A DNA stretch of 64,000 nucleotides from Escherichia coli (GTDB taxonomy: Bacteria; Pseudomonadota; Gammaproteobacteria; Enterobacterales; Enterobacteriaceae): assembly GCF_965641715.1 (NCBI RefSeq), contig NZ_OZ282453.1; one strand, written 5' to 3'. Numbering within the stretch: the stretch's first letter is position 1; each line of letters opens with the position of its first letter. The translations under genes and the position numbers were made by a program. Below the pieces are notes generated by a model. It searched no databases, was not told the origin of the DNA, and saw only the letters and a list, made by a program, of their open reading frames with translations. This document shows, one piece after another, positions 50,435 through 55,307 of the stretch.

Positions 50435-51361
50435 ATGAATTATTCTTTAAAACAATTAAAGGTTTTCGTCACAGTAGCGCAGGAGAAAAGTTTTAGTCGT
50501 GCAGGAGAGCGTATCGGCCTGAGCCAGTCGGCAGTAAGTCACAGTGTGAAGGAGCTGGAAAATCATACTGGTGTTCGCCTGCTGGACAGAACCACGCGTG
50601 AAGTGGTGCTTACAGATGCAGGGCAGCAGTTGGCTTTGCGTCTTGAGCGACTGCTGGATGAACTTAACAGCACGTTGCGCGATACCGGGCGTATGGGGCA
50701 ACAACTGAGCGGAAAAGTTCGGGTCGCTGCCAGCCAGACCATTTCCGCGCATCTTATTCCGCAATGCATTGCTGAAAGCCATCGCCGCTATCCAGATATT
50801 CAGTTTGTCCTGCACGATCGTCCGCAGCAGTGGGTGATGGAAAGTATTCGCCAGGGAGATGTCGACTTTGGCATCGTCATCGATCCAGGCCCAGTGGGCG
50901 ATCTGCAATGTGAAGCGATTCTTTCCGAGCCTTTCTTTCTGCTTTGCCATCGCGATAGCGCTTTGGCCGTGGAAGATTATGTACCCTGGCAGGCATTACA
51001 GGGAGCGAAATTGGTGTTGCAGGATTACGCGTCAGGCAGCCGACCGCTGATTGACGCAGCGCTGGCGCGCAATGGTATTCAGGCGAATATTGTGCAGGAG
51101 ATTGGACATCCGGCGACGCTGTTCCCGATGGTAGCCGCAGGCATCGGCATCAGTATTCTTCCCGCACTGGCGCTACCATTGCCTGAAGGTAGCCCACTGG
51201 TGGTAAAGCGCATTACGCCGGTTGTTGAACGCCAGTTGATGCTGGTGCGCAGGAAGAACCGTTCACTTTCCACCGCCGCTGAAGCGTTATGGGACGTGGT
51301 ACGAGACCAGGGCAATGCGCTAATGGCTGGTCGGGAAGGGGATCCGTTGTATCAGATATAG
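50435..51361 (+). CDS. yfeR: LysR-family transcriptional regulator YfeR (308 aa)
   Basis: N-terminal LysR HTH; divergent from yfeH. Confidence 0.85.
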
Positions 51362-51693
51362 ATATCGATATGAGTCGTATTTTCAACAGGATTTAGAAGG
51401 GATACATTCAGAGACAAACGCTGCTCTTTCTCCTGCGCCTTTTCTGCCTGCTGTCTCTGCAACTGCGCCAGTTGTGTTTCCAGTAGGGTGATTTGCTGTT
51501 GAATCAATTCGGCCTGTTTTTGCTTGTCTTCAGCACTGCCGCTAGTGTCTACAATCTCTTTAATTTGTTGAGTGAGTTTGATGATTTGCTGACTTATCCG
51601 CGCGATTTGTGAAGCAACATCGCTACCTTGTGATGCCCTGTTACTACTCTGTGTTTGTATGGAAGGAATTGAAGTTGAAGAGATAGTGGCCAT
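51352..51693 (-). CDS. FlxA-like Gln-rich coiled-coil protein (113 aa)
   Basis: Translation ...[48 protein letters not shown]... resembles FlxA-like family; overlaps yfeR 3' end by 10 nt. Confidence 0.4.
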
Positions 51694-52468: not shown

Positions 52469-53884
52469 ATGAAAATCAAAACTCGCTTCGCGCCAAGCCC
52501 AACAGGCTATCTGCACGTTGGCGGCGCGCGTACTGCTCTTTACTCCTGGCTTTTTGCACGTAACCACGGCGGTGAGTTCGTGCTGCGTATTGAAGACACC
52601 GATCTTGAGCGTTCCACGCCGGAAGCTATCGAAGCCATTATGGATGGCATGAACTGGCTGAGCCTGGAGTGGGATGAAGGTCCGTACTACCAGACCAAAC
52701 GTTTTGATCGCTACAACGCAGTGATCGATCAGATGCTGGAGGAGGGCACTGCTTATAAATGCTATTGCTCTAAAGAGCGCCTGGAAGCGCTGCGCGAAGA
52801 ACAAATGGCGAAAGGTGAGAAGCCGCGTTATGACGGTCGCTGCCGCCACAGTCATGAGCATCACGCTGATGATGAGCCGTGTGTCGTACGTTTTGCTAAC
52901 CCGCAGGAAGGTTCTGTTGTTTTTGACGATCAGATCCGTGGTCCGATCGAGTTCAGCAACCAGGAGCTGGATGATCTGATTATCCGCCGTACCGATGGTT
53001 CCCCAACCTATAACTTCTGTGTGGTTGTCGATGACTGGGATATGGAAATCACCCACGTTATCCGTGGCGAAGACCATATCAACAACACGCCACGCCAGAT
53101 CAACATTCTTAAAGCCCTGAAAGCGCCGGTACCGGTTTACGCGCACGTTTCTATGATCAACGGCGATGACGGCAAAAAACTGTCCAAACGTCACGGGGCA
53201 GTCAGCGTAATGCAGTATCGTGATGACGGTTATTTGCCAGAAGCACTGCTGAACTATCTGGTGCGTCTGGGCTGGTCCCACGGCGATCAGGAAATCTTCA
53301 CTCGTGAAGAGATGATCAAATACTTCACTTTGAATGCCGTCAGCAAATCTGCCAGTGCGTTCAACACCGACAAGCTGCTGTGGCTGAACCATCACTACAT
53401 TAATGCGCTGCCGCCGGAGTATGTTGCTACTCACTTACAGTGGCACATTGAGCAGGAAAATATCGATACCCGTAACGGCCCGCAGCTGGCTGATCTGGTG
53501 AAACTGCTGGGCGAACGCTGCAAGACGCTGAAAGAGATGGCACAGAGCTGCCGTTATTTCTACGAAGATTTTGCTGAGTTCGATGCCGACGCCGCGAAAA
53601 AACATCTGCGTCCGGTAGCGCGTCAGCCGCTGGAAGTGGTTCGTGACAAACTGGCCGCGATTACTGACTGGACCGCTGAAAACGTTCATCACGCTATTCA
53701 GGCGACGGCGGATGAGCTGGAAGTGGGTATGGGTAAAGTTGGTATGCCGCTGCGTGTCGCCGTAACCGGTGCGGGGCAGTCTCCGGCACTGGATGTTACC
53801 GTTCACGCAATCGGTAAGACACGTAGCATTGAGCGTATCAACAAAGCGCTGGCCTTTATTGCTGAACGCGAAAACCAGCAGTAA
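52469..53884 (+). CDS. gltX: Glutamyl-tRNA synthetase GltX (471 aa)
   Basis: Class I aa[12 protein letters not shown] (HIGH) motif and KLSKR (KMSKS) motif. Confidence 0.93.
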
Positions 53885-53901: not shown

Positions 53902-53936
53902 AAACGGCAGGAGATAATATCCTGCCGTTTTTTATT
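53902..53936. terminator. Bidirectional intrinsic terminator between gltX and yfeD
   Basis: aaacggcagga-gataatat-cctgccg-tttttt. Confidence 0.6.
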
Positions 53937-54328
53937 TATGCTGATTCGTCAATATCGAGACGGGCGAGGAAATTGCGAATTCCTTCACGTGACAAAAATT
54001 GCGCGACTTTTTCCTGCTCAATGTCTGTCATATTATCTATCGCGTTGATGATTTGTCGATACGCCGGGGCGCGTGCTCCAGGAGCGTATTCAGCAATTCT
54101 CTCTTCAGCTTCCATCAACATTGGTGTGTTATGGAAGGCTGGCGTGTTCTGAATAAACTCGCAAACTTGCGTATCGACCAGAATAAGTCTGGCACGACCG
54201 CCTTTCACGCCGGGAAATTTTTCCGTTTTCCAGCCTTTTTCTCTGATCCAACGGTTAACAGTTTGTTTAGCCACACCGAGGCATTCAGCCAGTTCTTCGG
54301 TGGTCATTTTATTGCGTAATCTTTTCAT
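53936..54328 (-). CDS. yfeD: Small putative DNA-binding protein YfeD (130 aa)
   Basis: N-terminal HTH-like ...TEELAECLGVAKQTVNRWIREKGW...; synteny. Confidence 0.7.
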   Translation of the reverse strand: MKRLRNKMTTEELAECLGVAKQTVNRWIREKGWKTEKFPGVKGGRARLILVDTQVCEFIQNTPAFHNTPMLMEAEERIAEYAPGARAPAYRQIINAIDNMTDIEQEKVAQFLSREGIRNFLARLDIDESA

Positions 54329-54329
54329 A

Positions 54330-54689
54330 TTATTTGCTATCGCGAATCCCTAAGCGTTGTAACAATCCGATAATCCCTTCCCGCAGAAGCAAGGATGTAA
54401 ACTGTTTTTGTTCAACTGGCGTCATCTCTTTCGCCAGTGTCACCAGCAATACTTCAAGCGGCGCATCACCAGAAAGGGCAGGCGCTTCTCCCTGACCTTC
54501 TGGACGTTCAGCATTACGAATATATTCACGAACCTGTTCATTGACGTGAACCAGTCGGGCTTTGCCACCCTGGACGCCTGGTTTTGGTGACGTCGTCCAG
54601 CCTTCCTTGCGTACCCATTTATTAATGGTCTGGCGGCTATAGCCGGTCAGTCTGGCAAGTTCATCTGGCGTCATCCTCTCCTTGAACAT
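54330..54689 (-). CDS. yfeC: Small putative DNA-binding protein YfeC, paralog of YfeD (start may be internal ATG 54674)
   Basis: ...PDELARLTGYSRQTINKWVRKEGW... parallels YfeD; synteny. Confidence 0.7.
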   Translation of the reverse strand: MFKERMTPDELARLTGYSRQTINKWVRKEGWTTSPKPGVQGGKARLVHVNEQVREYIRNAERPEGQGEAPALSGDAPLEVLLVTLAKEMTPVEQKQFTSLLLREGIIGLLQRLGIRDSK

Positions 54690-54848
54690 AACAATTCCCT
54701 GAATGTATGTGGGTCTATTAGTAGTTCATTTTATAGCACCACTTTACAGGAAACCGTGACATGAATAACTACTGAATGCGAGCGGTTTTCCAAAATTGTT
54801 CATTTGCCTGATTTTTCAGCGATTGAAACTACACGCTGCAATTTGCCG

Positions 54849-54877
54849 TTGACACATTCGGGCGGAATTCATATGAT
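54849..54877 (+). promoter_or_regulatory. Sigma70 promoter of tRNA-Ala operon
   Basis: TTGACA - 17 bp - TATGAT about 33 bp upstream of first tRNA-Ala. Confidence 0.55.
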
Positions 54878-54909: not shown

Positions 54910-54985
<76 letters not shown>

Positions 54986-55024: not shown

Positions 55025-55100
<76 letters not shown>

Positions 55101-55107
55101 AATTTCC

Positions 55108-55136
55108 AACCCTCGCTGCAAAGCGGGGGTTTTTTG
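55108..55136 (+). terminator. Intrinsic terminator after tRNA-Ala pair
   Basis: ccctcgct-gcaa-agcggggg-tttttt. Confidence 0.55.
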
Positions 55137-55307
55137 TCTCTGCTTTTTGCCGCTTTTGTAATACAGTCTACGTCCGGGTTAGCGCCGCCTGGTGAAAGCA
55201 TCATTGGATGAAAAATCGGCAACAGGCTGGCCCCTGTTTGCTTCGCGATGCGAATAAACTTATTATTTGTGTGCCTGAAAACCCCGATCAGTGAGAGTAG
55301 TGTACTC

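Follow-up and report, generated by a model that had tools for sequence, protein, structure and literature searches.

The window analysed here is a 64,000-nucleotide stretch of Escherichia coli DNA. Positions 53936 to 54689 contain exactly two open reading frames, both on the minus strand: yfeD (53936..54328, stop codon included), which encodes 130 aa, and yfeC (54330..54689, stop codon included), which encodes 119 aa. Both products match the Pfam family PF07037 over profile positions 1-122 of 122, YfeD with 213.5 bits (E=1e-63) and YfeC with 173 bits (E=3.6e-51), where the gathering score is 22.9 bits. Both the nearest E. coli genome and K-12 carry the names yfeD and yfeC in RefSeq, and each protein is 100% identical to its counterpart in K-12 MG1655. 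A first-pass annotation made from the letters alone had placed two adjacent open reading frames at exactly these coordinates and had named them YfeD and YfeC, correctly in both respects. They are thus known, named and annotated E. coli genes, which arose when the gene of a small DNA-binding regulator was duplicated in tandem long ago. What is added here is the classification as Mu repressor-like, a single old duplication with asymmetric divergence, and small notes on the annotation. Unusual allelic diversity within E. coli was considered and rejected: over 2.9 kb the window and K-12 share 98.8% identity, and the proteins are identical. At one locus of the comparative set (L002), YfeC is 91% identical and the whole segment 94% identical, which indicates simply a divergent lineage.

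The pair lies between genes of the translation apparatus. On the yfeD side, gltX (52469..53884, plus strand; open reading frame and RefSeq annotation), encoding glutamate--tRNA ligase, is convergent with yfeD, and the two share a bidirectional intrinsic terminator (53902..53930) with an 11-bp stem and T-runs on both strands. On the yfeC side are two identical tRNA-Ala(GGC) genes on the plus strand, alaW (54910..54985) and alaX (55025..55100), both found by ARAGORN and present in the K-12 annotation, followed by a terminator (55108-55131, plus strand) detected by the terminator scan. They are preceded by a divergent promoter (54849..54877, plus strand), TTGACA-17-TATGAT and then a GC-rich discriminator, which matches the consensus at 11 of 12 positions and is invariant across the aligned genera. 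Further out, valU-valX-valY-lysV lie before gltX and pdeA lies after alaW-alaX. The spacer between yfeC and alaW is 220 bp in the window, and 216-221 bp in 79 of the 81 loci measured.

The start of yfeC is annotated in two ways. PGAP, as in the window, gives 119 aa, and the K-12 annotation gives 114 aa, with a start at 54674. The longer form has a Shine-Dalgarno sequence, AGGGA (54696..54700, minus strand), 6 nt upstream of its start codon, and CAGGRA in this region is kept in 15 of 17 aligned genera. In the longer form M1 and K3 do not vary, and the conservation of E4 and R5 exceeds 90%. The Shine-Dalgarno sequence and the conserved M1, K3, E4 and R5 make the 119-aa start better than the 114-aa start. 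At the other end of yfeC, its stop codon is separated by one nucleotide from the start codon of yfeD (TAA-T-ATG, 54326..54332, minus strand). Of 84 loci, 49 have a spacer of 1 nt and 83 have one in the range -20 to +9. As judged from this spacer and its conservation across loci, yfeC and yfeD are a two-gene operon and are probably translationally coupled at TAA-T-ATG; the terminator scan found no terminator between them. Upstream of yfeC, an extended -10 element, TGcTATAAA (54730..54738, minus strand), is nearly invariant in 17 genera. We propose this element, from its consensus, as a candidate yfeC promoter. It lacks a good -35 and was for that reason missed by a simple promoter scan. A conserved block, TGTCACnnTTTCC (54749..54761, minus strand; equivalent to TGTCACnnTTTC), occupies the place of the -35, and in it columns T154-C157 and T160-C163 of the 17-genus alignment are invariant. 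It is possible that TGTCACnnTTTC is an operator, and we refer to it as a putative one.

The family is narrow. All 116 homologues tested match PF07037, and among 1.84 billion cluster representatives a search with the profile gave only 231 matches, of which only 16 had E<=1e-30. Named members come from genera of Enterobacteriaceae and from Chimaeribacter (Yersiniaceae). Within E. coli, the yfeCD segment was found in 5425 of 5426 complete genomes. Scanning one genome per species gave 80 loci from about 30 genera. These loci have the same order, in which one to three tRNA-Ala(GGC) genes run divergently from yfeC and yfeD, and gltX converges on yfeD; the exceptions are a Kosakonia-type layout, in which gltX has moved away and the pair is kept, and contigs that end early. 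Proteins of about 115-135 aa in an alaWX/gltX neighbourhood were found at all 80 genome loci and on additional contigs. Eight further contig look-ups gave ten added loci (L082-L091), most with the same pair, some with a very divergent second gene. The tRNA-Ala pair was upstream in 80 of 80 genomes, which bears out the earlier suggestion that the position between the tRNA-Ala genes and gltX is conserved. A mobile-element origin for the present locus was considered and rejected. A tblastn search with YfeD against 50,697 phage genomes gave no match, and no phage genes lie beside yfeC and yfeD in any of 91 loci. Matches of YfeC in plasmid records are to large, chromosome-sized or otherwise non-mobilizable molecules, which look mislabelled.

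YfeC and YfeD are clearly related to each other. They share 48 identities over 127 positions (38%) and 55% positives with E=3e-27 in BLASTP, a similarity far beyond chance in the pairwise alignment that had been suggested as a check. Two stretches that had been picked out by eye, the motif LA..G...QT.N.W.R..GW...PGV.GG.ARL..V and the C-terminal tail REGI...L.RL.I..S, are found literally in this alignment. Two family open reading frames are present in 86 of the 91 loci. The other five are a locus with an in-frame internal deletion of yfeC (L005), a locus at a contig end (L041), and three single-copy loci from two sources, namely two Chimaeribacter records and one metagenome contig (L086), whose GltX stands alone in its cluster. 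In Chimaeribacter the single-copy gene adjoins gltX. In a neighbour-joining tree rooted on Chimaeribacter and drawn without bootstrap values, first-position and second-position genes formed two clades, which indicates one old duplication. The local duplication proposed by the first-pass annotation is therefore right as to tandem paralogy, but the event is ancient and not recent, as the two clades extend across Enterobacteriaceae. An ancestral single gene would have stood beside gltX, as it still does in Chimaeribacter, and one tandem duplication at the base of Enterobacteriaceae would have produced two copies that have both been kept since.

The two copies have diverged unequally. The mean distance is 0.27 within YfeC, 0.46 within YfeD and 0.64 between them, and the rate of evolution of YfeD is about 1.7 times that of YfeC. 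By distance, the single-copy proteins lie closer to YfeC than to YfeD. Identity in the recognition helix (residues 17-29 in YfeC) is 97% in the YfeC clade, 71% in the YfeD clade and 49% between the paralogues, and the linker is essentially unconserved in both. Wolf and Koonin (2012) listed yfeD as a syntenic gene that is not a best reciprocal match between E. coli and Cronobacter, which fits the fast clock of YfeD.

The pair has also been called a type II toxin-antitoxin system, by RASTA-Bacteria in 2007 and again in a TraDIS paper on E. coli K1 (PMC5847654). It is easy to see why, as the genes are small, adjacent and coupled, one has an antitoxin-like HTH, and RASTA ranked the pair with high confidence; some members also match Pfam 'YdaS_toxin' weakly (best E=8.5e-5). 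The YdaS_toxin matches are at the level of the HTH, and that family is misnamed. The relationship described above argues against the toxin-antitoxin proposal, because YfeC and YfeD are paralogous and have the same DNA-binding fold, and no toxin domain was found in Pfam, NCBIfam or PHROGs other than these weak matches. Further, the locus is neither mobile nor patchy but a fixed core locus, present in nearly every E. coli genome and in all sampled genera of Enterobacteriaceae. Viable yfeC deletion mutants have been obtained in three backgrounds (K-12, a K1 strain and EHEC), and growth of the K1 mutant matched that of the parent strain. We give a toxin-antitoxin function almost no credence, and return to YfeC and YfeD as two DNA-binding regulators.

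Structure prediction gives both proteins the same DNA-binding fold. The AlphaFold monomer of YfeC (pLDDT 81; 116-sequence alignment) has an N-terminal winged HTH (residues 1-60; 54510-54689, minus strand), a disordered linker (residues 62-75) and a C-terminal helical hairpin (residues 78-112; 54354-54458, minus strand). The winged helix is made of helices 8-15, 19-29 and 51-60 and of wing strands 33-35 and 45-48. The wing strands flank PGVQGGKA, which aligns residue for residue with MuA and with Mu repressor c, and the model thus has the beta-hairpin wing with a G-V-K-G-G-K/R-A motif that is characteristic of Mu-type domains. In the fusion model described below, YfeD has the same layout, with a winged HTH at about residues 1-62 (54143-54328, minus strand), a C-terminal helical hairpin at about residues 88-123 (53960-54067, minus strand) and a variable linker between them. 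The helix-turn-helix nature that had been assigned to both proteins is upheld. The predicted wing carries GW...PGV.GGxA and the predicted hairpin ..MT..EQ..L..LL.REGI.GLL.RLGI, and we infer that the C-terminal hairpin is a self-association surface. Fold searches were less specific than the model itself. With the YfeC monomer, matches were moderate (Z no higher than 6.6) and generic for winged helices. The fusion model gave no match at E<=0.001, and the viral structure library BFVD gave generic excisionase- or MerR-like matches, none at E<=0.001.

The function of the pair was described as uncharacterised in the first-pass annotation, which is out of date, because Gao et al. (2021; PMC8464067) performed ChIP-exo on both proteins (data set GSE159777) and RNA-seq on a yfeC deletion; the regulon mapping by ChIP that had been recommended was thus already available, as far as the published site lists for YfeC and YfeD go. 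In the current K-12 RefSeq annotation YfeC is a dual regulator. In that study, tagged YfeC and YfeD were examined in glucose M9 medium only. YfeC bound 50 sites with an inverted-repeat motif, about 40% of them intragenic; 205 genes changed in the yfeC deletion, and 16 of 20 direct targets were repressed by YfeC (PMC8464067). For YfeD, at least 36 sites are given, and among the YfeD sites listed only ispB/sfsB/rplU is shared with YfeC (PMC8464067). Gao et al. also tie YfeC to an earlier report that a yfeC mutant has increased extracellular DNA, and the YfeC homodimer in the literature comes from SWISS-MODEL (PMC8464067). In other strains, an E. coli K1 yfeC mutant colonised the neonatal rat small intestine more poorly (PMC5847654), and deletion of yfeC in EHEC left LEE1 expression unchanged.

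From these published data and the analyses above, we consider that YfeC and YfeD are paralogues encoded in one operon, both of them small transcription factors that bind specific DNA sequences, belong to the narrow family PF07037 and have a Mu-type history; we put the probability of this at roughly three in four. YfeC is the conservative copy, acting mainly as a repressor at its approximately 50 published sites. YfeD is the fast-evolving copy, with a different recognition helix and a largely different set of sites, as far as its sites are listed. YfeC would probably also repress its own operon, on published and indirect evidence taken together, and YfeD would then be made only when repression by YfeC is relieved.

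Autorepression was looked at from several sides. In the yfeC deletion, yfeD mRNA rose about 20-fold (log2FC 4.3, padj 5e-133; PMC8464067). Such a rise is in keeping with autorepression, but polarity caused by the deletion construct may also account for it. By eye, the yfeC promoter contains no convincing match to the published 'TTC-rich inverted repeat with 6-nt spacer'. One YfeC ChIP-exo peak is assigned to 'yfeC' (NC_000913.2 2516052-2516085). With the offset between versions 2 and 3 of NC_000913 at this peak, which we take to be about 1976-1978 bp, and the K-12 v3 coordinates, it corresponds to approximately 55078..55113 in the window. With an uncertainty of about 2 bp in its position, the peak falls on the 3' end of alaX and its terminator, not on the yfeC promoter. 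Because the peak lies on alaX and because the rise of yfeD may be polar, the case for autorepression of the operon by YfeC is a weak one.

The same peak is relevant to a different proposal, that the pair locally regulates its neighbours alaWX, gltX or both, so that its conserved position would reflect function and not inertia. Such a role would account for the near-universal synteny with the tRNA-Ala pair and gltX, for the almost constant length of the intergenic region, for the location of the single-copy Chimaeribacter relative, also beside gltX, and for the one YfeC ChIP-exo peak on the 3' end of alaX. However, highly transcribed tRNA genes are common false-positive regions in ChIP. Moreover, gltX and alaX are absent from all supplementary tables of PMC8464067, including that of genes differentially expressed in the yfeC deletion. 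The majority of binding sites lie at other genomic positions, and Kosakonia keeps the pair though gltX has moved away. We therefore regard a local role as distinctly improbable, and favour two regulators with targets throughout the genome.

It is also conceivable that YfeC and YfeD act as an obligate heteromer, pairing through their C-terminal hairpins and reading composite operators. This would explain why both genes are kept in all 86 complete loci and why the coupled stop and start are conserved. The same hairpin, REGI.G.L.RLGI, is present in both paralogues and aligns with the region of Mu repressor that follows the DNA-binding domain, and one strong ChIP-exo site, ispB/sfsB/rplU, is among the listed sites of both proteins (PMC8464067). 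In an AlphaFold model of the fusion YfeC-(GGGGS)6-YfeD, built with a paired 34-genus alignment, the pTM was 0.34. Each domain was predicted with confidence, but the way in which they pack against each other was not, although a linker fusion is a weak test. Furthermore, apart from that one site the lists are distinct among the sites given (50 for YfeC and at least 36 for YfeD), and both the ChIP with tagged YfeC and the phenotypes of the yfeC deletion can be interpreted without YfeD (PMC8464067). An obligate heteromer thus seems unlikely to us, and we return to two separate regulators in discussing where the family came from.

Several comparisons linked PF07037 with phage Mu. In a search of the PDB, the family profile matched 1tns, which is MuA domain I-alpha, with E=6.4e-5, and 1g4d, which is Mu repressor c, with E=0.012; YfeC alone matched 1tns with E=0.01. 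In hhalign, the family profile scored 93.9% against Mu repressor c and 94.5% against MuA residues 1-101. Against a 10-member family alignment of Mu repressor c the score was 97.0% with E=1.2e-10 over 117 columns, and YfeC residues 3-110 were paired with Mu repressor c residues 14-133, the C-terminal hairpin included. The canonical MerR protein CueR, used as a control, scored 3%. The Mu domain model PF02316 was matched at E<=0.1 by 68 of 116 family members, with a best E-value of 2.8e-6. As a single sequence, YfeC scored 14.6 bits with PF02316, where the threshold is 23.3, and it is the family-profile methods that give the Mu signal. Thus, the link to Mu rests on profile methods, because single E. 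coli sequences are below the PF02316 threshold. In addition, PHROG 4151 'DNA binding protein' was matched at E=7e-9, the single-copy proteins retain the 'W.(T/S)P.EL' start of Mu domains, and the Chimaeribacter homologue carries the UniProt name 'HTH Mu-type domain-containing protein'. We conclude from these sequence comparisons that PF07037 is probably a winged-HTH family of Mu type, whose homology to Mu repressor c covers two thirds of that protein, starting from its N-terminus.

Two other family labels were considered and rejected. YfeD is labelled as MerR family in RefSeq. MerR_1 was matched by YfeC at E=0.15 and not by YfeD, and it did not rank within the top 25 families when all 116 members were scanned; the CueR control is given above. 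A LysR assignment is listed in Table 1 of PMC4797297, and a Pfam scan found neither PF00126 nor the substrate-binding domain. A description as 'Mu-type winged-HTH, Mu repressor-like' is better than the MerR, LysR and toxin-antitoxin labels found in databases and papers.

If the family is of Mu type, the locus may be a functional remnant of Mu-like prophage immunity that has kept its recognition of Mu-type operators and its influence on Mu-like phages or on transposable prophages. Homology to Mu repressor c that runs from the DNA-binding domain through the linker into the helices beyond would be expected in that case, as would the homology to the enhancer-binding domain of MuA and the PHROG match. 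Nevertheless, the phage genomes and the 91 loci searched, as described above, gave neither a match nor a flanking phage gene, the locus is inherited vertically across the whole bacterial family, the C-terminal regulatory third of Mu repressor is missing, and the published targets are ordinary chromosomal genes. We consider a surviving immunity function very improbable.

Descent is a separate matter from present function. We infer that the ancestor was a phage gene and that the direction of descent was from phage to host. In the fullest form of this history, YfeC and YfeD would be a domesticated, C-terminally truncated c repressor of Mu type, captured beside gltX before the diversification of Enterobacteriaceae, surviving as a single copy in Chimaeribacter and duplicated once, after which the recognition helix of YfeC would have been frozen and that of YfeD would have drifted, with YfeD under the control of YfeC. 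On this complete sequence of events our judgement is evenly divided. If it is true, the pair shows, across a whole bacterial family, how an immunity repressor of a phage has become part of the transcription network of its host. The likely ancestry in a phage repressor offers a concrete hypothesis for the origin of an Enterobacteriaceae-specific regulator family.

Among known systems, PF07037 'YfeC-like' (formerly DUF1323) is the family itself, and K-12 YfeC (b2398) and YfeD (b2399) are the same genes at the same genomic position. LysR-type proteins are about 300 aa long, whereas YfeC and YfeD have only 119 and 130 aa. The small winged helices of the MerR superfamily and excisionase type (BldC, RacA, pSK1 Par and Pukovnik Xis) differ in that YfeC and YfeD have no significant match to a MerR Pfam family, and lack both the long coiled-coil dimer helix and an effector-binding domain; instead, a short two-helix hairpin follows a disordered linker. 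The N-terminal domain I-alpha of MuA (PDB 1tns/1tnt; PF02316 HTH_Tnp_Mu_1) has a winged HTH of the same type, but only the DNA-binding core of about 45 residues is common, and YfeC and YfeD are without the catalytic region of the transposase. With Mu repressor c (Repc; DNA-binding domain PDB 1qpm/1g4d), the shared parts are the DNA-binding domain, the linker and, after it, the helical region for oligomerisation, although only about 24% of residues are identical. Both proteins stop at a point that corresponds to residue ~133-140 and thus lack the last ~60 residues, which are the regulatory tail of Mu repressor c. The repressor gene lies at the left end of the prophage, divergent from ner, A and B; in contrast, yfeC and yfeD are chromosomal core genes in a tandem pair, with no ner, A or B nearby, and, unlike Mu repressor c, their published targets are host genes.

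On sequence grounds, the 119-aa form of YfeC annotated by PGAP is a better start than the 114-aa K-12 form, because the ATG at window 54689, upstream of the K-12 start, is preceded by a proper Shine-Dalgarno sequence and because YfeC residues 1-5 (M-x-K-E-R) are kept across genera. In K-12 RefSeq, yfeC starts at M6, and window 54674-54689 is the region between the two starts. Further upstream, a conserved block, TGTCACnnTTTC (window 54749-54761, minus strand), is invariant in 17 genera and occupies the -35 position of a putative yfeC promoter. This block showed no obvious fit to the published description of the YfeC motif.

In Escherichia sp. MOD1-EC7003, yfeC (L005:3883-3996, corresponding to window 54330-54689) has lost an internal segment in frame; the deletion is bounded by two short direct repeats, ATGACGCC, coding for MTP (residues 6-8 and 89-91). 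The remnant is a 36-aa ORF that contains only the last helix, and yfeD of this locus is still intact and coupled. The locus of Cedecea neteri (L082:3597-4357) showed the highest within-locus identity between the paralogues, 53% versus a median of 38%, and an unusually long yfeC-yfeD spacer of 41 nt. Partial gene conversion between the yfeC and yfeD copies is possible in this genome.

The equivalent of alaW (window 54910-54985) is altered in Escherichia sp. E1V33 (L004:3344-3419), and likewise in Citrobacter sp. NCU1 (L011:3341-3416). Of the two tRNAs in the alaW-alaX pair, the one nearer the promoter has in both loci a whole anticodon stem-loop of the tRNA-Ala(UGC) type, with CCTGCTTTGCACGCAGG replacing CTTGCATGGCATGCAAG, and the distal tRNA is unaltered. 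This looks like gene conversion from a tRNA-Ala gene of an rRNA operon, in two independent events. The tRNA arrays flanking yfeCD also differ in copy number between loci: five tRNA-Val(UAC) genes precede tRNA-Lys in Intestinirhabdus alba (L014:6279-6908), and three copies of the tRNA-Ala(GGC) gene are present in Enterobacter vonholyi (L060:3110-3419).

Adjoining lysV in the window is an intact FlxA-like ORF of 113 aa (51352-51693, minus strand). In L001, the top megablast match to the yfeCD segment (99.8% identity), the annotation lists this gene as a pseudogene interrupted by an internal stop. The mechanical ORF of pdeA has 749 aa, 20 codons more at its 5' end than the annotated product of 729 aa (window 55248-55307); the extra codons are probably an over-extension of the ORF.

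Outside the window, the product of sfsB is Ner-like, a homologue of the other early regulator of phage Mu besides repressor c. Among the ChIP-exo sites listed, 50 for YfeC and at least 36 for YfeD, the sole site common to YfeC and YfeD lies between ispB and sfsB(nlp)/rplU (K-12 NC_000913.2, 3332954-3332983; Gao et al. 2021, PMC8464067). That the two Mu repressor-like proteins share a site adjoining this Ner-like gene may be a coincidence.
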